From a virus (lineage: Duplodnaviria; Heunggongvirae; Uroviricota; Caudoviricetes), in the IMG/VR virus record IMGVR_UViG_2698536348_000008, positions 1-7,513 of that record: 7,513 bases of DNA; one strand, given 5' to 3'. Below the pieces are notes generated by a model that saw only the letters and a program-made list of their open reading frames with translations, made no database searches and was not told where the DNA came from. Of the stretch, positions 1 through 7,513 are shown in pieces (positions within the stretch are counted from its first letter, which is position 1; each line of letters starts with the position of its first letter). The position numbers and the translations under genes were made by a program.

Positions 1-496
1 CCCCCGACGTCATAACGGAACAGGGGATACGCCGAATGTTGATACAAATACAGAGATTACTACAGAGATTACTACAGAGATTACAACGGAGACTAAAAAC
101 ACTATTGGCGCATCCGCTGACGCGTCTGCACCAGCGCGTTCTGCCAGACAGGAATATTCACCGGAATTTGAACAGGCCTGGCAGGAATATCCCAAACGTG
201 CTGGTGGTAATTCAAAATCCGCCGCTTTTAAAGCCTGGAAAGCCCGAATCAGGGAAGGTGTGACACCCGAAACCATGCTCGACGGTGTGAAACGCTATGC
301 CGCCTGGGTGCGTGTCTCTGGAAATACCGGTACCCAGTTCGTGAAGCAGGCGTCGACGTTCTTTGGTCCGGATCGTCATTTCGAAGAATCCTGGGAAGTT
401 CCTGCGGTATCTGCAGCCAGACGCGAGGACCCGTACTTCAAAGCCAGTTACGACAACGTGGACTACAGCCAGATCCCGGAAGGATTCAGGGGGTGA
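1..496 (+). CDS. Phage replication protein, C-terminal portion with DnaT-like C-terminus; 5' end lies upstream of the window
   Basis: The frame beginning at nt 2 is open from the window edge to TGA 494-496 (the ORF track shows only the 260-496 part). The C-terminal ...DYSQIPEGFRG resembles the C-terminal end of E. coli primosomal protein DnaT as I recall it (memory, not a search). Position directly upstream of dam/rusA/Q fits a lambdoid replication module. Confidence 0.6.
   Translation, partial: PRRHNGTGDTPNVDTNTEITTEITTEITTETKNTIGASADASAPARSARQEYSPEFEQAWQEYPKRAGGNSKSAAFKAWKARIREGVTPETMLDGVKRYAAWVRVSGNTGTQFVKQASTFFGPDRHFEESWEVPAVSAARREDPYFKASYDNVDYSQIPEGFRG
49..84 (+). repeat. 12-bp tandem repeat, 3 copies (tacagagattac) plus a degenerate 4th unit, in frame within the replication gene, encoding (TEIT)3
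   Basis: Direct reading: units at 49-60, 61-72 and 73-84 are identical; 85-94 (aacggagact) is a decayed copy. Translation in the gene frame gives NTEITTEITTEITTETK. Confidence 0.85.
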
Positions 497-498
497 TC

Positions 499-591
499 AT
501 GAGTCTTTTGAATGAAGTTCAGAAATTCATTGAAGCCCATCCGGGGTGTACTTCCGGAGACATTGCGGATGCTTTTTACGTGGGGGCTTAA
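499..591 (+). CDS. Possible small ORF (30 aa, MSLLNEVQKFIEAHPGCTSGDIADAFYVGA) between the replication gene and dam; hypothetical
   Basis: ATG 499-501 lies 2 nt after the upstream stop and is preceded by a G-rich stretch (caggggg). Its stop TAA 589-591 shares a base with the dam ATG at 591 (TAATG). Below the ORF-track length cutoff; no homology recognised. Confidence 0.25.
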   Translation: MSLLNEVQKFIEAHPGCTSGDIADAFYVGA

Positions 592-1244
592 TGAGTAATA
601 AATATTGCCAGGCGCTGGTAGAACTGCGGAACAAACCAGCCCATGAACTGAAGGAAGTGGGCGATCAGTGGCGCACGCCGGACAACATTTTCTGGGGAAT
701 TAACACCTTGTTTGGTCCGTTTGTTCTGGATCTGTTCACTGACGGTGATAACGCCAAATGTGCCGCGTATTACACGGCGGAAGACAACGCGCTGGCGCAT
801 GACTGGTCAGAACGTCTTGCGGAGCTTAAAGGTGCTGCCTTTGGTAATCCCCCATACAGCCGCGCCAGTCAGCATGAGGGGCAATACATCACCGGCATGC
901 GTTACATCATGAAACATGCCAGTGCCATGCGTGATAAGGGCGGGCGCTATGTTTTCCTGATCAAAGCGGCCACCAGCGAAGTGTGGTGGCCGGAAGATGC
1001 AGATCATATTGCTTTTATTCGCGGGCGTATTGGTTTTGAACTGCCAGCCTGGTTTATCCCGAAAGACGAAAAGCAGGTGCCAACAGGTGCTTTCTTCGCT
1101 GGTGCTATTGCTGTTTTCGACAAGACCTGGAAGGGAGCGGCAATCAGCTACATCGGGCGCGATGAACTTGAGGCATGTGGTGAGGCGTTTCTGGCGCAGG
1201 TTCGCCAGCAGGCGGAAAAACTGGTCAGGGAGATGGCGGCATGA
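591..1244 (+). CDS. Phage DNA N6-adenine methyltransferase (Dam-family phage MTase)
   Basis: Translation contains the catalytic motif FGNPPYS (NPPY/DPPY motif IV) and an N-terminal WRTPDNIF segment typical of phage Dam-type MTases. ATG at 591 gives MSNKYCQ...; the ORF-track start at 546 is a GTG with no RBS, so 591 is preferred. Stop overlaps the next gene's start (ATGA at 1241-1244). Confidence 0.8.
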   Translation: MSNKYCQALVELRNKPAHELKEVGDQWRTPDNIFWGINTLFGPFVLDLFTDGDNAKCAAYYTAEDNALAHDWSERLAELKGAAFGNPPYSRASQHEGQYITGMRYIMKHASAMRDKGGRYVFLIKAATSEVWWPEDADHIAFIRGRIGFELPAWFIPKDEKQVPTGAFFAGAIAVFDKTWKGAAISYIGRDELEACGEAFLAQVRQQAEKLVREMAA

Positions 1245-1567
1245 CGACATTAACTCAATGCCAGCAGCAGGTGCTGGATATGCTGATTTCTTATCAGAAA
1301 GAACGTGGCTTCCCGCCAACCAATCAGGAGGTGGCAACCATGCTGGGATACCGTTCGGTGAATGCAGCGGTGGAGCATCTTCGCGCACTGGAGAAAAAAG
1401 GTGTCATCACGATAAAGCGTGGCGTGGCCCGGGGTATCACTCTTCATACCGCGGTGAAGGACGACGACAGCGAGGCGGTCGGGATTATCCGCGCCCTGCT
1501 TGCCGGTGAGGCAAACGCCAGGCTGCGTGCAGCCCACTGGTTACATGAGAGGGGCCTGAAAGTATGA
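1241..1567 (+). CDS. LexA N-terminal DNA-binding-domain-like protein (winged HTH only, no S24 peptidase domain), 108 aa
   Basis: LTQCQQQVLDMLISYQKERGFPPTNQEVATMLGYRSVNAAVEHLRALEKKGVITIKRGVARGITL aligns by eye almost residue-for-residue with E. coli LexA residues ~4-68 ([65 protein letters not shown], recalled from memory). No Ala-Gly cleavage site or Ser/Lys peptidase domain follows. Coupled to neighbours by ATGA overlaps at both ends. Confidence 0.75.
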   Translation: MTTLTQCQQQVLDMLISYQKERGFPPTNQEVATMLGYRSVNAAVEHLRALEKKGVITIKRGVARGITLHTAVKDDDSEAVGIIRALLAGEANARLRAAHWLHERGLKV

Positions 1568-1959
1568 AGCTAATACTGCCTTTTCCGCCCAGCGTGAACA
1601 CGTACTGGCGACACCCCAACAAAGGGGCGTTTGCTGGTAAGAGCCTGATAAGCGCGGCGGGGCGAAAATTCCAGAGCGCGGCGTGTGCAGCAATAGTTGA
1701 GCAGTTACGTCGTCTGCCGAAACCAACGTCGGCACCTGCTTCAGTGGAGATCGTGTTGTTTCCTCCGGATAACCGGATCCGCGATCTGGACAACTATAAC
1801 AAGGCGCTGTTTGACGCCCTGACCCACGCGGGTGTGTGGGAAGACGACAGACAGGTGAAAAGAATGCTGGTGGAGTGGGGACCGGTTATCCCGGAGGGGA
1901 AGGTCGAGATCACTATCAGTAAGTACGAAAAAGCGAGTTGCAAATTAGCAACTCGGTAA
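1564..1959 (+). CDS. rusA: RusA-family crossover junction endodeoxyribonuclease (Holliday junction resolvase)
   Basis: LPFPPSVNTYWRH ... RDLDNYNKALFDALTHAGVWEDDRQV matches the RusA pattern (LPWPPSNNRYYRH ... [26 protein letters not shown] in E. coli RusA, from memory). RBS GAGAGGGG precedes the ATG; typical nin-region position. Confidence 0.85.
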   Translation: MKLILPFPPSVNTYWRHPNKGAFAGKSLISAAGRKFQSAACAAIVEQLRRLPKPTSAPASVEIVLFPPDNRIRDLDNYNKALFDALTHAGVWEDDRQVKRMLVEWGPVIPEGKVEITISKYEKASCKLATR

Positions 1960-2004
1960 CGGAATTGAGCAACACCCTAAATTTGGGTATTACCTCGTTA
2001 AAGA

Positions 2005-2024
2005 TACTGTATTTATGAACAGTG
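2005..2024. promoter_or_regulatory. SOS-box-like (LexA operator-like) site TACTGTATTTATGAACAGTG
   Basis: Perfect CTGT-N8-ACAG core (CTGT 2007-2010, ACAG 2019-2022) with an AT-rich spacer; 16 of 20 positions match the TACTGTATATATATACAGTA consensus by hand. Lies in the 162-bp intergenic region upstream of the KilA-N gene. Confidence 0.4.
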
Positions 2025-2029
2025 TATCC

Positions 2030-2058
2030 TTGATAACTATTAAAAATCGCAGTAAGTT
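2030..2058 (+). promoter_or_regulatory. Candidate sigma70 promoter for the KilA-N/DUF968/Q genes (-35 TTGATA, 17-bp spacer, -10 TAAGTT)
   Basis: Hexamers read by eye: TTGATA at 2030-2035 and TAAGTT at 2053-2058. Weak -10; unverified. Confidence 0.2.
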
Positions 2059-2121
2059 CATCCTGCATCAACGAAAAGGGAGTGCAGTCCCGCTCGTGGA
2101 TAAAAATTTGTGGAGAAACCA

Positions 2122-2937
2122 ATGAATCAGTTGCTTGTAATTGATGGCGTTTCTGTGCGCCAGTACTTCGAATCTAACTACTGTCTTAACGACCTTCAGA
2201 AAGCTGCTCTTCTTGCCGCTGGTGAGAATCGCTCCTCCCGTTCGCTGGAAGTTCACGAGTTTATGCGTCGTCCTGAAACGAAGGCTCTTGTGGAATTATT
2301 GGAAGAAGAAACTACGGGAGATTCCCGTAGTATTCCTGTCATCACCATTCAGGGGCGCAATGGTGGGACGTATGTCTGTAAAGAGCTGGTCTATGCATAT
2401 GCAATGTGGATCAGCCCGGCATTCAGCTTAAAAGTGATACGTACTTTTGATGCGCTTCATAATTCATCACCAGAAGAAACCACATCCGACAAAATTAAAT
2501 CCGGGGTCATTCTGCTTGAATCAGCAGCAAAGACTCTAAATCTGTCAAACTCCTCGAAACTTGGTGCATACCAGAAATTATCAAAGGTAGCTGGTCTTCC
2601 TGAACTTATGCCGATCTATGCCATTGATGCACCTGCTGATGCGCCAGATGGTTCAAGCCGCCCTACGCTGTCGCTGAGTGCACTGCTGAAGCAGTATGGT
2701 ATCCGCCTGACGGCTAATCAGGCATATCACCAGATGGCGAAGCTGGGGATCGTTGAACAACGCGAACGATACAGCCGTACCGCGATTAACAACATCAAAA
2801 AATTCTGGTCGCTGACAGCGAAAGGTTGCATGTTCGGCAAGAACATCACCAGTCCCGCAAATCCGCGCGAGACGCAGCCGCATTTCTTCGAATCCCGATT
2901 CCCTGAGCTGTTAAAGCTGCTCGATACCGTTCATTGA
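2122..2937 (+). CDS. KilA-N domain protein (Roi-like phage DNA-binding protein)
   Basis: N-terminal region (GRNGGTYVCKELVYAYAMWISPAFSLKV) resembles KilA-N domains of phage Roi-type proteins found between nin genes and Q (family-level memory). ATG 2122 has RBS GGAG at 2112-2115; the ORF-track start at 2110 is a GTG inside that RBS. Confidence 0.7.
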   Translation: MNQLLVIDGVSVRQYFESNYCLNDLQKAALLAAGENRSSRSLEVHEFMRRPETKALVELLEEETTGDSRSIPVITIQGRNGGTYVCKELVYAYAMWISPAFSLKVIRTFDALHNSSPEETTSDKIKSGVILLESAAKTLNLSNSSKLGAYQKLSKVAGLPELMPIYAIDAPADAPDGSSRPTLSLSALLKQYGIRLTANQAYHQMAKLGIVEQRERYSRTAINNIKKFWSLTAKGCMFGKNITSPANPRETQPHFFESRFPELLKLLDTVH

Positions 2938-2938
2938 G

Positions 2939-3934
2939 GTGACCGTGAGAGCACTACTGACCCCTGAAATTGCCCCGCGTATGGGGATCGTATTGTTCAG
3001 ACCCGGTTCAGAGCTGATGCCCCTGTTTATGCAGGGGCGTGTCCTGCTGGAGCCTGAGCCGGAACGTTATTCATCTTTTGCCAGTGGTGCCGTTCCGGCA
3101 GCATCACAACCGCTGGCGGATGATCCTGCCGTTCGGGCCGTGTTCCGCAATGAGGCAGTGATCCGTCGTGCTGGTGGCGTGGAATGTCTTGAAAGCTGGT
3201 TACTTCGTGAAAAAGGTTGCCAGTGGCCTCATTCCGACTGGCACAGCGAGAACATGACCACAATGCGACACGCGCCGGGCGCAATCCGTCTGTGCTGGCA
3301 CTGCGATAACCAGCTGCGCGATCAGTTCACGGAACGGCTGGAATCAATGGCAACGGATAACTGTGCCCGCTGGGTGTTGTCTGTTGTGCGTCGGGATCTC
3401 GGTTTTGATGACAGTCACGTTGTGACAATGCCGGAACTGTGCTGGTGGCTGGTTCGTAATGATCTGGCGGATGCCTTACCGGAAAGTGCAGCCCGTAAGG
3501 CACTGAGATTACCGAAGCCTGTTGTGCCGTCTGTCACCCGGGAGAGTGACCTTGTGCCTTCGGTTCCGGCCACCAGCATCATCCAGAATAAAGCGAAAAA
3601 GGTGCTGGCGCTGAAAGTGGATCCGGAGTCGCCGGAGTCTTTTATGTTACGCCCAAAACGTCGCCGCTGGGTTAACGAAAAGTACACGCGCTGGGTTAAG
3701 ACGCAGCCGTGTGCATGTTGTGGAAAGCCTGCTGATGATCCCCACCACCTGATAGGCCACGGTCAGGGGGGAATGGGTACAAAAGCGCATGACCTCTTCG
3801 TGCTGCCTTTGTGCAGAAAGCATCACGACGAGCTGCATGCGGATACCGTGGCATTTGAAGAGAAGTATGGCTCCCAGCTGGAGCTGATATTTCGTTTTAT
3901 CGATCGTGCGCTGGCAATAGGCGTGCTGGCCTGA
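2939..3934 (+). CDS. DUF968-like prophage protein with C-terminal HNH-like Cys/His cluster
   Basis: C-terminal RWVNEKYTRWVKTQPCACCGKPADDPHHLIGHGQGGMGTKAHDLFVLPLCRKHHDELH resembles the conserved core of DUF968 proteins in E. coli prophages (e.g. YdfU-like; memory). Start is uncertain: GTG 2939 sits 1 nt after the upstream stop, and the first ATG is at 2981 with no clear RBS. Confidence 0.6.
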   Translation: MTVRALLTPEIAPRMGIVLFRPGSELMPLFMQGRVLLEPEPERYSSFASGAVPAASQPLADDPAVRAVFRNEAVIRRAGGVECLESWLLREKGCQWPHSDWHSENMTTMRHAPGAIRLCWHCDNQLRDQFTERLESMATDNCARWVLSVVRRDLGFDDSHVVTMPELCWWLVRNDLADALPESAARKALRLPKPVVPSVTRESDLVPSVPATSIIQNKAKKVLALKVDPESPESFMLRPKRRRWVNEKYTRWVKTQPCACCGKPADDPHHLIGHGQGGMGTKAHDLFVLPLCRKHHDELHADTVAFEEKYGSQLELIFRFIDRALAIGVLA

Positions 3935-3951
3935 TTTTGTGGAGAAAGTTG

Positions 3952-4323
3952 ATGCGTGATATTCAAATGGTTCTTGAACGTTGGGGGGCATGGGTGGCAA
4001 ATAATCACGAGGATGTGGAATGGTCATCTGTTGCTGCAGGTTTTAAGGGATTAATTCCTTCGAAAGTAAAATCCCGCCCGCAATGTAGCGATGACGATGG
4101 CCTGATCATTAGCTCTGCGATGACAGTTCTTAAGAAAAAGGAACCGTATCAATACGAATTACTGGAAATGTATTATGTGTATGGGGTTACATTACGGGTG
4201 TTGGGGGTAAAACTGGGGATATCACTTAATCAGGTTGTTATCAGACTGCAGAAAGCTGAAGGGTTTATTGACGGTTGTCTGGCAATGTTGGGGGTATCTT
4301 TAGAAATTGATTGTTACATATAG
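3952..4323 (+). CDS. Antitermination protein Q (QuuD-like short Q)
   Basis: MRDIQMVLERWGAWVANNHEDVEWSSVAAGFKGLIPSKVKSRPQC... closely resembles the DLP12 prophage Q homologue QuuD as I recall it. ATG 3952 has RBS GGAG at 3941-3944; the ORF-track start at 3937 is TTG. Confidence 0.75.
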   Translation: MRDIQMVLERWGAWVANNHEDVEWSSVAAGFKGLIPSKVKSRPQCSDDDGLIISSAMTVLKKKEPYQYELLEMYYVYGVTLRVLGVKLGISLNQVVIRLQKAEGFIDGCLAMLGVSLEIDCYI

Positions 4324-4398
4324 TAATAAATTCAATCAAAGTAAATAATCATATTTTATTATAACCTCCTGATGATACCTGTTCATTGGGAGGTTATT
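4324..4398 (+). promoter_or_regulatory. Q-distal intergenic region: candidate late-promoter (pR'/qut-like) position plus a leader hairpin that pairs with the RBS of the next ORF
   Basis: In lambdoid phages pR'/qut lie directly after Q (established); here 75 AT-rich bp follow the Q stop. ATAACCTCC (4361-4369) is the exact reverse complement of GGAGGTTAT (4389-4397), which contains the RBS of the ORF starting at 4399. Promoter hexamers were not confidently placed. Confidence 0.3.
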
Positions 4399-4632
4399 AT
4401 GGATAAAAATGTAGAGCATGTATTAGTTGATGCAATTGAAAATAAGCAATCTTTAACAGTCGTTTACTTAGGAGGGAGCCAGCCCGGAACATTAAGGAAT
4501 ATTTCTCCGATTAGTATAAATGGGGATAAATTGCGGGCAAGATGCCATAGTTCTGGAGCAGTAAAGGTTTTCAATCTTGGGAAAATACAGTTACCCAGTG
4601 ACTCCTGCGCGGTATCTATGCACTATGGAGAT

Positions 4633-4636
4633 TTAG
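4633..4636. repeat. IS5 target-site duplication, left copy (TTAG)
   Basis: TTAG immediately outside the IS5 left terminus; an identical TTAG flanks the right terminus. IS5 makes 4-bp duplications at YTAR-type targets (established). Confidence 0.85.
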
Positions 4637-4652
4637 GGAAGGTGCGAACAAG
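4637..4652. repeat. IS5 left terminal inverted repeat
   Basis: GGAAGGTGCGAACAAG; its partner at 5816-5831 reverse-complements to GGAAGGTGCGAATAAG. Confidence 0.9.
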
Positions 4653-4659
4653 TTCCTGA

Positions 4660-5685
<1,026 letters not shown>

Positions 5686-5815
5686 AAACTGGGGATAACG
5701 CCTTAAATGGCGAAGAAACGGTCTAAATAGGCTGATTCAAGGCATTTACGGGAGAAAAAATCGGCTCAAACATGAAGAAATGAAATGACTGAGTCAGCCG
5801 AGAAGAATTTCCCCG

Positions 5816-5831
5816 CTTATTCGCACCTTCC
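5816..5831. repeat. IS5 right terminal inverted repeat
   Basis: CTTATTCGCACCTTCC, inverted complement of the left terminus with one mismatch. Confidence 0.9.
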
Positions 5832-5835
5832 TTAG
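5832..5835. repeat. IS5 target-site duplication, right copy (TTAG)
   Basis: TTAG immediately outside the IS5 right terminus, identical to 4633-4636. Confidence 0.85.
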
Positions 5836-6344
5836 AAGTTAAAGCTTATGAGACGATGCAGAGCGTAAATGACAACTTTCATGCCCTTTATCCTGAAGGA
5901 CGATGGGGTGTTGATTTTAATGAGCATCGCTTTGCTTTATTTGATTTTTTTAAAAACGGGAAACGAAAAAAAACGGCATTTATGGCAATTGAGTTCAGGG
6001 AAAGAGATGAAGAGAAAATAATAACAGGTGTAACAATTGATATTGGTATATCTGGAACAGTGATTTCTGAGAAGTCCCGAATCCCAAAAAGACGACCATG
6101 GGTAGTGGTTGGTCCCGAACACGGAGAATACAGTACTTATTCAACTTTGGACAAGGCTGCTACAGCGTTTTTTGAGAGGCTTTCGTTGATAGCATCCGGC
6201 CTGGAAGATAATTGATTTTATGTTTGGTATTCAGAGTTCGCCGTGCTTAAGAAAGTCAAGATTCTAAAAATACTGAATGAGCTACTTGTGTTATAACAAA
6301 AATGCTATTAGTGTGTTAAGAGTGGTTACTTCGCCACACAACTT

Positions 6345-6369
6345 AAACCCGCCACTGAGCGGGTTTTTT
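6345..6369 (+). terminator. Rho-independent terminator (8-bp stem AAACCCGC/GCGGGTTT, 6-nt loop, T6 tract)
   Basis: Stem 6345-6352 pairs with 6359-6366 and is followed by TTTTTT 6364-6369. Lies about 130 bp after the cargo ORF stop. Confidence 0.6.
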
Positions 6370-6491
6370 GTACCTGTAAACTTGGTGCAGTACAGTAAAC
6401 ACGCTGGTGGTCGTGAATACTGACTTTTTATCTTGCTGGCTTTTTAGACAAGAGTTATTGGTATGTCATGTTAACCAGAAGGGAAAAAGAC

Positions 6492-6689
6492 ATGCTAAAA
6501 CAGCAAGATATGACCGAAACCGCCAGAGTGGTGTTTAATGAATTGAGCGTCACCGAACCGGCGACAGTCGGGGAGATTGCGCAGAATACTTACCTTTCAC
6601 GCGAACGCTGCCAGTTAATACTGACCCAGCTGGTTATGGCGGGTCTGGCAGACTATCAGTTCGGTTGTTACAGACGCCTTCCGCAGTGA
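6492..6689 (+). CDS. Small hypothetical protein (~65 aa) with HTH-like segment
   Basis: The ORF track gives 6468-6689. I prefer ATG 6492 because it is preceded by AAGGGA at a suitable spacing, whereas 6468 has no RBS. TVGEIAQNTYLSRERCQLILTQLVMAGL resembles a helix-turn-helix (pattern only). Ends inside a terminator-like hairpin. Confidence 0.4.
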   Translation: MLKQQDMTETARVVFNELSVTEPATVGEIAQNTYLSRERCQLILTQLVMAGLADYQFGCYRRLPQ

Positions 6690-6699
6690 AGGCTTTTTT
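6676..6699 (+). terminator. Candidate rho-independent terminator (6-bp stem GCCTTC/GAAGGC, 6-nt loop, T6 tract)
   Basis: GCCTTC 6676-6681 pairs with GAAGGC 6688-6693, followed by TTTTTT 6694-6699. The stop codon of the small ORF lies in the loop/stem. Confidence 0.45.
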
Positions 6700-6716
6700 A
6701 TTTGTGGTAAATGGGC

Positions 6717-6747
6717 GGCTGGTGGGTGTTAGGGGCACCCACCAGCC
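6717..6747. repeat. Perfect 12-bp inverted repeat (GGCTGGTGGGTG / CACCCACCAGCC) with 7-nt spacer; each arm contains a Chi octamer
   Basis: Left arm 6717-6728, right arm 6736-6747, exact reverse complements. GCTGGTGG is at 6718-6725 (+ strand) and its complement CCACCAGC at 6739-6746. Confidence 0.6.
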
Positions 6748-6839: not shown

Positions 6840-7513
6840 ATGCTTAATACTGTAAAAATATCCAGTTGTGAGTTAATCAACGCCGACTGCCTGGAATTTA
6901 TCCGGTCGTTACCCGAAAATTCTGTTGACCTGATAGTCACGGACCCGCCGTACTTTAAAGTGAAGCCTGAGGGCTGGGATAACCAGTGGAAGGGCGACGA
7001 TGATTACCTGAAGTGGCTGGACCAGTGTCTGGCGCAGTTCTGGCGGGTGCTGAAACCTGCCGGAAGTCTTTACCTGTTCTGTGGTCATCGCCTGGCATCT
7101 GATATCGAAATCATGATGCGTGAACGCTTCAGTGTGCTGAACCATATTATCTGGGCGAAGCCGTCCGGACGCTGGAACGGATGCAACAAGGAAAGCCTGC
7201 GGGCGTATTTCCCCGCCACAGAGCGCATTCTGTTCGCGGAACATTATCAGGGGCCGTATCGTCCGAAAGATGCCGGGTATGAGGCGAAGGGCAGGGCACT
7301 GAAACAGCATGTGATGGCCCCGCTGATTGCTTACTTTCGTGATGCGCGCGCTGCCCTGGGGATAACGGCAAAACAGATTGCAGATGCCACAGGAAAGAAA
7401 AACATGGTGCCGCACTGGTTCAGTGCCAGTCAGTGGCAGCTACCGAACGAAAGCGATTATCTGAAATTACAGTCGCTGTTTGCCCGGGTGGCAGAAGAGA
7501 AACATCAGCGCGG
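6840..7513 (+). CDS. DNA methyltransferase (N6-adenine/N4-cytosine type, DPPY motif), 5' portion; continues past the window end
   Basis: Not in the ORF track (no stop in window). From ATG 6840 I translated 224 codons without a stop: MLNTVKISSCELINADCLEFIRSLPENSVDLIVTDPPYFKVKPEGWDNQWKGDDDYLKWLDQCLAQFWRVLKPAGSLYLFCGH... The TDPPY motif near the N-terminus and overall pattern resemble YhdJ/phage-type MTases. The minus-strand ORF 6909-7415 overlaps it and is rejected. Confidence 0.8.
   Translation, partial: MLNTVKISSCELINADCLEFIRSLPENSVDLIVTDPPYFKVKPEGWDNQWKGDDDYLKWLDQCLAQFWRVLKPAGSLYLFCGHRLASDIEIMMRERFSVLNHIIWAKPSGRWNGCNKESLRAYFPATERILFAEHYQGPYRPKDAGYEAKGRALKQHVMAPLIAYFRDARAALGITAKQIADATGKKNMVPHWFSASQWQLPNESDYLKLQSLFARVAEEKHQR

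Follow-up and report, generated by a model that had tools for sequence, protein, structure and literature searches.

A probable GATC methyltransferase and an M.EcoGI/GII-type methyltransferase in a lambdoid prophage segment

Introduction

Why should one lambdoid prophage carry two DNA methyltransferases (MTases) within 7.5 kb, are the two enzymes related, and what do they methylate? These questions are raised by the stretch of DNA analyzed here (the window), which has a length of 7,513 bp and is the whole contig CYDI01000089.1 of the draft assembly GCA_001285245.1. The original prediction, made from the letters alone, placed a Dam-family MTase with the motif FGNPPYS in the nin region and an unrelated MTase with the motif TDPPY past the late antiterminator gene Q. 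The present analysis recovers both in one prophage segment, the former (M1) as a member of PF05869 and the latter (M2) as a member of PF01555.

Results and Discussion

Gene Order of the Segment

The contig belongs to a lambdoid prophage from E. coli or a near relative of this species and extends from the early-right (nin) region into the late leader; its annotated genes, all on the plus strand, read as the right arm of such a prophage (Table 1).

Table 1. Features of the window
Feature	Position	Strand	Remarks
O-like replication gene, 3' end	up to 496	+	
30-aa ORF, PerC-family remnant	499..591	+	stop overlaps M1 start (TAATG)
M1, phage N-6-adenine methyltransferase, 217 aa	591..1244	+	PF05869/TIGR01712; NPPY 846-857
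LexA DNA-binding-domain-only protein, 108 aa	1241..1567	+	PF01726, E=3e-19; overlaps M1 stop (ATGA)
RusA	1564-1959	+	
KilA-N protein	2110-2937	+	
DUF968/HNH protein	2939-3934	+	
Late antiterminator Q	3937..4323	+	PF06530, E=1.5e-47; end of early-right operon
WYL-domain gene, 205 aa, split by IS5	4399-4636 plus 5836-6215	+	
IS5, 1195 bp	4637..5831	+	16-bp terminal inverted repeats
GC-rich hairpin with T-run, candidate late terminator (tR'-like)	6347..6372	+	fold energy -13.8 kcal/mol
Small ORF, 73 aa (called as 65 aa from 6492)	6468..6689	+	phrog_331
Second hairpin with T-run	6676-6700		
M2, first 224 codons of an MTase of ~349 aa	6840..7513	+	PF01555; DPPY 6942-6953

The short ORF upstream of M1 is what an in-frame deletion has left of a PerC-family gene of about 162 aa, 132 codons having been lost. 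The PerC-family gene precedes M1 in related prophages and is intact in E. coli S88 and L004. Downstream of Q, the IS5 element is flanked by a target duplication, TTAG, at 4633-4636 and 5832-5835, and deletion in silico of the element together with one TTAG restores an intact WYL-domain ORF. The related prophages lack the IS5 insertion, and no exact match to the IS5/WYL junction was found in species-representative genomes.

In the interval between Q and M2, the first hairpin matches the position of the "putative rho-independent terminator" annotated in phage SfV between Q and orf47, and the small ORF that follows it stands before the MTase slot in related phages too. A promoter scan of this interval gave candidates no commoner than in shuffled sequence, and pR' was not located; an Rfam scan of the entire window returned no known RNA family. 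GATC sites are not depleted in this DNA; the window has 30 of them, and 29-39 are expected.

Identity of M1

M1 is a complete ORF of 654 bp encoding 217 aa, a length equal to that of the annotated homologues in the phages 1720a-02, Stx2a_1447, and SfV, and the boundaries originally given for it (591-1244) are exact. The protein matches the Pfam profile PF05869 ("Dam") with E=5e-45 and 153.5 bits (cutoff 28.1) over profile positions 3-167 of 169, the NCBIfam profile TIGR01712 with 254.4 bits (cutoff 97.05) over positions 1-165 of 165, and the PADLOC profile PDLC03263 (MTase_II) with 520 bits over 1-217 of 217. The NPPYS of its FGNPPYS motif constitutes residues 86-90 and comes after an N-terminal DxWxTP...LD segment. 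The exact M1 protein is present on at least 999 contigs under the name [quoted passage not shown].

A kinship with the alpha-class Dam enzymes of E. coli and T4 was considered and ruled out, as M1 gave no Pfam match to the alpha-class D12 profile (PF02086) and no match to PDB chains, Dam structures included, at E<=1 in the protein search or E<=10 in the profile search. The alpha-class enzymes are likewise N6-adenine MTases and target GATC, as is presumed of M1; PF05869 bears the name "Dam" on account of function and not of orthology. AlphaFold2 models of M1 had mean pLDDT values of 37.5 from the single sequence, which is too low for any structural reading, and of 39.1 from an alignment of 31 sequences (homologues at least 76% identical), which is likewise unusable.

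Another candidate identity was that of a rRNA-directed MT-A70 enzyme such as the M.EcoGV-like one described in PMC10810198. We rejected it, because that enzyme belongs to a different protein family and is not present in the window. M.EcoPA8orf6770P/M.EcoGV (PMC10810198) is a prophage "adenine methylase" found in the same phage group, but, unlike M1, it is of the MT-A70 type and has a DPPW motif. It shows that "adenine methylase" annotations can hide an RNA substrate.

Target of M1

Two members of PF05869 serve as references for the specificity of M1. Coliphage T1 Dam (ST20), which we take to be a GATC enzyme, scores 236 bits with the profile. The other is M.EcoVT2Dam of phage VT2-Sakai, which targets GATC (PMC6602927, citing Radlinska and Bujnicki 2001). 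We take it to be orf32, because no other PF05869 gene lies within the initial 30 kb of VT2-Sakai, the part examined; orf32 scores 218 bits and, like M1, sits in the nin region. M1 had also been considered as a near-identical copy of M.EcoVT2Dam, which was rejected in view of only 31% identity to orf32.

Both reference enzymes have the motif set DxWxTP, LD, NxxC, NPPYS, and GR in common with M1. The residues D25, W27, T29, P30, L46, D47, N54, C57, G145, and R146 are common to the three proteins, and M1 retains every invariant residue of a six-sequence alignment. It differs from orf32 in its length, 217 aa versus 175 aa, with extra residues inserted after NPPYS and a helical tail at its C-terminus; the insertions that flank the NPPYS catalytic loop are specific to the lineage of M1.

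M1 is 31% identical to orf32 and 24% identical to T1 Dam. Since T1 Dam and orf32 are themselves only 33% identical, GATC specificity appears to span such a distance within PF05869, and the target of M1 is most likely GATC. With an identity of only 24-31% to the characterized enzymes, this assignment is made at the level of the family. The low identity and the insertions beside NPPYS mean that the specificity could differ from GATC, and no specificity test of the 217-aa subtype of PF05869 was found in the literature. The original prediction, which held that the targets of the two enzymes cannot be inferred, was nevertheless too cautious here, because membership in a family whose characterized members recognize GATC makes this target probable for M1.

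Identity and Completeness of M2

M2 opens at an ATG at 6840, has its TDPPY motif at 6939-6953, and is still open where the window ends, at 7513. It matches PF01555 (N6_N4_Mtase) with E=2e-17. The part present amounts to 224 of about 349 codons. It contains DPPY at residues 35-38, while the SAM-binding FxGxG motif, which stands near the C-terminus in full-length alleles (about residue 310), lies past 7513. Because the window is the entire contig, we attribute the cut at 7513 to a break of the assembly rather than to a biological truncation. M2-type genes are present in several copies in many genomes, at up to 6 places per genome, which fits a repeat-induced contig break. The gene lies 2.5 kb 3' of Q, or 1.3 kb if IS5 is discounted.

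The M2 fragment is identical in 224 of 224 residues to P0150 (AFS73976.1, AKE83937.1, UniRef A0A0E0Y1D5_ECO1C), identifiers that we read, from the entry code and the accession series, as those of the O104:H4 outbreak clone. It is identical in 223 of 224 residues to the M.EcoGII sequence in the supplement of PMC11551740, a machine-read text with evident systematic misreads; once three machine-reading errors are corrected, P0150 equals the published M.EcoGII sequence exactly. Strain AREA_499 has a complete protein of 349 aa, WP_032221776.1, to which the fragment is likewise identical (224/224). This protein, the nearest complete allele found, covers the full PF01555 profile and is identical to the machine-read M.EcoGII at 335 of 348 positions, the approximately 13 differences lying in the C-terminal third. 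The missing part of M2 may accordingly be M.EcoGI-like or a mosaic variant.

Which part is missing matters for the specificity. In the model of M.EcoGII, the target-recognition region constitutes residues 160-237 (PMC11551740). The predicted target-recognition region of M2 is mostly inside the window (to residue 224) and is identical to that of M.EcoGII, an enzyme shown biochemically to methylate adenine whatever the surrounding sequence (PMC5778455). Judged by its sequence, M2 is a beta-class N6-adenine MTase of the M.EcoGI/GII type, to which the context-free activity is transferred by identity. The claim that targets cannot be inferred therefore fails for M2: with 224 of 224 residues identical to the M.EcoGII-matching P0150, and M.EcoGII being context-free (PMC5778455), M2 would, by identity, have no target motif at all.

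M.EcoGII and M.EcoGI of the prophages of E. coli O104:H4 C227-11 (Murray et al. 2018, PMC5778455) are, like M2, prophage-borne, beta-class, and equipped with an N-terminal DPPY; of the 349 codons, M2 in this contig has the first 224 only. The M.EcoGII paper names phage 1720a-02 as carrying "a very similar MTase" (PMC5778455). Indeed, a 352-aa "DNA methyl transferase" occupies the M2 slot of 1720a-02 and is identical to the M2 fragment in 219 of 224 residues (98%). SfV orf48 is found in the same slot, with approximately 81% identity to M2 over the region compared.

Relation between the Two Genes

No pairwise similarity between M1 and M2 is detectable (BLASTP E=2.1), and the placement of their catalytic motifs differs, NPPY being at residue 86 of 217 in M1 and DPPY at residue 35 in M2. 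On these sequence comparisons, their description as unrelated holds at the family level. The original prediction had also called both enzymes orphans. No partner restriction endonuclease is found among the window ORFs by Pfam, or by PADLOC applied to selected neighbors, and beyond M2 the complete relatives carry tRNAs, stx, or lysis genes. The orphan status of both MTases is thus supported within the extent of the contig.

Neither gene is rare. Among 5,426 complete E. coli genomes searched with megablast, M1-type DNA is present in 2,120 and M2-type DNA in 1,927, i.e., about 35-39% for each gene, and each is found on more than 600 IMG/VR viral contigs. The module consisting of M1, the LexA-like gene, RusA, KilA-N, DUF968, Q, the small ORF, and M2 is already present in published phages, namely SfV, 1720a-02, Stx2a_1447/WGPS2, and a series of Stx2c phages, and in all of these the nin-region module includes the 217-aa M1 gene. 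The window departs from SfV, 1720a-02, and the Stx2 phages in that Q and the MTase are separated by a further WYL-domain gene and by IS5, and in its Q, a protein of 128 aa of the PF06530 type.

The two genes are, moreover, frequently found apart. An M2-type match is located 3' of 19 of the 44 M1 loci that have at least 8 kb downstream; 16 of these matches are full length and belong for the most part to the SfV-like allele with 81% identity, 2 are remnants, and 1 is a distant match at 32%. Conversely, M1 is found upstream in only 1 of 42 loci of M2 (the 1720a-02-like allele), with about 10 kb available upstream. A prophage of E. coli S88 corresponds to window positions 102-6726 at 97.6% without IS5, and there an AraC-like regulator fills the M2 slot. 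In many Stx2a phages the MTase gene is reduced to its last 37 codons. The pairing of M1 and M2 is facultative, as is usual in lambdoid mosaics, and no functional coupling is indicated. The implication of the original prediction that such a pairing is unusual was overstated, given that it occurs in published phages, that each gene is in more than one-third of the complete E. coli genomes, and that the association is facultative.

Proposed Timing and Roles

We consider it probable that M1 and M2 are two independent N6-adenine MTases placed in separate temporal units, an early GATC enzyme and a late context-free one, both acting against restriction. The identities, completeness, positions, frequency, and facultative pairing of the genes are observed, and we infer from them the timing, the GATC target of M1, and the anti-restriction role.

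Because M1 is tightly packed in the nin region, overlapping its neighbors through TAATG and ATGA, its expression is expected to go with that of the early-right operon; such packing is typical of nin genes (PMC8022706). M1 would be made from this operon during lytic growth. The Dam of the host leaves the virion DNA of lambda and P22 under-methylated (PMC8022706), and GATC methylation by M1 may top up the Dam marks on the fast-replicating phage DNA. The lack of GATC depletion in the window is part of the rationale for such an enzyme.

M2, located in the leader of the late operon behind Q and terminator-like hairpins, would stay off in the lysogen and be expressed only after antitermination by Q. 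The order Q, small ORF, MTase, and then tRNAs/stx or lysis genes is the same in 1720a-02, Stx2a_1447, SfV, and AREA_499, and the genes from Q to the lysis cassette are under the control of pR' and Q (PMC6266700); this paper, which deals with the pR' region, makes no mention of a methylase. The placement behind Q and the hairpins fits the published behavior of M.EcoGI/GII-type genes, which under the conditions tested were not active in lysogens (PMC5778455, PMC4659465). In particular, M.EcoGII is not expressed from its resident prophage, and its constitutive expression harms the cell (PMC5778455, PMC7544214). In the present prophage, the IS5 between Q and M2 might be polar on M2.

Once made, M2 would lay a blanket of m6A on the progeny DNA just before packaging, which could shield it from many restriction systems sensitive to adenine methylation. 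Overall, the phage DNA would undergo a self-methylation in two stages, GATC first and context-free m6A second. The anti-restriction function put forward in the original prediction agrees with the literature, where this role is proposed for M.EcoGII-type enzymes, and we extend it here to the two genes of this segment as a likely function. No test of the timing or of the anti-restriction benefit for these phages, nor a demonstration in phage infection, was found in the literature.

Alternative Explanations

The assignment of GATC to M1 has to be weighed against the view that M1 is not a GATC DNA MTase but has another specificity or an RNA substrate, to which it is perhaps directed by an adjacent small nucleic-acid-binding partner. 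The identity of 24-31% to the characterized members and the insertions at the catalytic loop argue for such a divergence, but the residues common to both GATC enzymes are all conserved in M1. A precedent for a partner is the MT-A70-type "DNA adenine methylase" of Stx phages, which is bound to the product of an adjacent gene and prefers 16S rRNA (PMC10810198), although it belongs to a different protein family. The LexA-like ORF, which overlaps the M1 stop and is directly 3' of M1 in 80 of 80 close IMG/VR loci (a sample of near-identical modules), would be one candidate partner, and the PerC-family protein encoded upstream the other. However, in some O157 genomes it is RusA that is annotated beside M1, and the PerC-family gene on the other side is reduced here to a remnant of 30 aa, so that neither neighbor is obligatory. 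Fusions of PF05869 to PF01726 or PF06069 exist in the databases, yet they are singletons and could be frameshift errors. We therefore find it unlikely that M1 acts on anything other than GATC in DNA. The more specific proposal that the 217-aa subtype would be a two-part methyltransferase, with its DNA or RNA target set by the small partner, is very improbable; it draws on the LexA-type gene that overlaps M1 in close relatives, on the PerC-family gene that is usually upstream, and on the analogy with the MT-A70/PNB-2 rRNA methyltransferase of Stx phages.

A different question is whether the MTases, rather than acting in anti-restriction, chiefly exert epigenetic control over the phage life cycle or over host genes, affecting the stability of lysogeny, the frequency of induction, or virulence. 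The methyltransferase of phage VHML, 50% identical to the full-length M2 homologue of 1720a-02, has reportedly been discussed as a regulator of the life cycle. A prophage-borne methyltransferase alters the frequency of spontaneous induction and the virulence in STEC (PMC10810198), and M.EcoGIII, the methyltransferase of a Stx-phage restriction-modification system, reportedly changes how some 1,900 genes of the host are expressed, according to the summary in PMC6602927. Such a role is, however, difficult to reconcile with the silence of M.EcoGI/GII-type genes in the lysogens tested (PMC5778455, PMC4659465) and with the position of M2 behind Q-dependent terminator-like hairpins; furthermore, a context-free methylase is ill-suited to site-specific regulation, and its constitutive expression is harmful (PMC5778455). 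Regulation as the main function thus seems improbable to us. Lastly, the prophage could be decaying, and one or both genes would then be inactive relics in the source strain. IS5 within the WYL-domain gene between Q and M2, the in-frame deletion in the PerC-family gene, the fact that M2 cannot be read past codon 224, and the reduction of the MTase gene to its final 37 codons in many Stx2a phages would all be in line with decay. Against this, M1 and the other nin-region ORFs of the window are all intact, with identities of 97-100% to their counterparts in functional phages, and the M2 codons on the contig are free of defects and match full-length alleles exactly. Such decay is, on this evidence, unlikely.

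Conclusions

The two MTases of this segment are mosaic cargo and not a coupled system, with M1 most likely adding GATC methylation early and M2, by its identity to M.EcoGII, probably adding context-free m6A late. M1, M2, and their co-occurrence are already known from published phage genomes and methylome papers, so that the finding is ordinary as a discovery and its practical value is in annotation. The label "phosphoadenosine phosphosulfate reductase", which M1 homologues bear in some RefSeq phage records, is inappropriate for M1. M2 would be better labeled as an M.EcoGI/GII-type non-specific adenine methyltransferase than as a "site-specific" enzyme with an unknown motif.

The Module Around the First Methyltransferase

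The phage N-6-adenine methyltransferase M1 (591-1244) is flanked on both sides by genes for short proteins (see the table). In E. coli S88 and other prophages, M1 is preceded by a PerC-family gene, and the upstream 30-aa ORF of the window is what an in-frame deletion has left of this gene, 132 codons having been lost and the first 26 and the last 4 kept. The same deletion is seen at the DNA level in 3 of 80 M1 loci from IMG/VR. The product of the downstream gene consists of the N-terminal LexA DNA-binding domain alone, without the S24 self-cleavage domain, and the gene is a conserved member of the nin-region module in which M1 is carried.

Features next to M1 and in the late region (positions in the window)
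Feature	Position	Length	Remarks
PerC-family remnant ORF	499-591	30 aa	overlaps the M1 start
LexA DNA-binding domain protein	1241-1567	108 aa	gene after M1
IS5, complete	4637-5831	1195 bp	target duplication TTAG at 4633-4636 and 5832-5835

Both neighboring domains are also found joined to the M1 domain in some database entries (proteins P0033-P0049, P0061, P0107, and P0123), the PerC-family domain upstream giving proteins of about 380 aa and the LexA domain downstream giving proteins of 284-324 aa. The majority of the fusion entries are singletons, which may have arisen artificially where stop and start codons overlap, through frameshifts or errors in gene calling. One PerC-M1 fusion, P0041, is found on 12 contigs.

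In RefSeq phage re-annotations (e.g., NC_003444 SfVp41 and NC_049941), homologues of M1 are named phosphoadenosine phosphosulfate reductase. The name appears to derive from PHROG 33262; the proteins underlying this family are fusions of a PAPS-reductase-like domain and a Dam domain. The match of M1 is confined to positions 283-492 of this 495-position profile, and the reductase name is therefore a misannotation.

The Late Region and the Second Methyltransferase

Between Q and the late-operon leader, the IS5 element interrupts a 205-aa WYL-domain gene, the open reading frame of which is whole again once IS5 and one TTAG are removed. The insertion is absent from the close relatives E. coli S88, L140, and L100, and the same WYL-IS5 fusion ORF is encoded at a contig end of a second draft assembly, GCA_001285465.1.

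Both ends of the window (1 and 7513) are ends of the draft-assembly contig CYDI01000089.1, the left one lying inside a replication gene, near a 12-bp × 3.7 tandem repeat at 49-92 that encodes TEIT repeats, and the right one within the multi-copy M.EcoGII-type methyltransferase gene. Both look like repeat-induced assembly breaks.

Comparison of the window (6840 onwards) with the prophage loci of E. coli S88 (L173, 9922-10629) and L004 (10359-11072) reveals a variable cargo slot in the late-operon leader, directly after the small ORF, which is occupied by the M.EcoGII-type gene in some prophages and by an AraC-type HTH regulator in others; either cargo is followed by tRNA genes and then by stx or lysis genes. 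In many Stx2a-converting phages (records H123-H140, including phi191 and PA44), only the last 37 codons of the M.EcoGII-type gene (residues 316-352) are left, which suggests that this remnant is a deletion scar and that the ancestor had the full gene.
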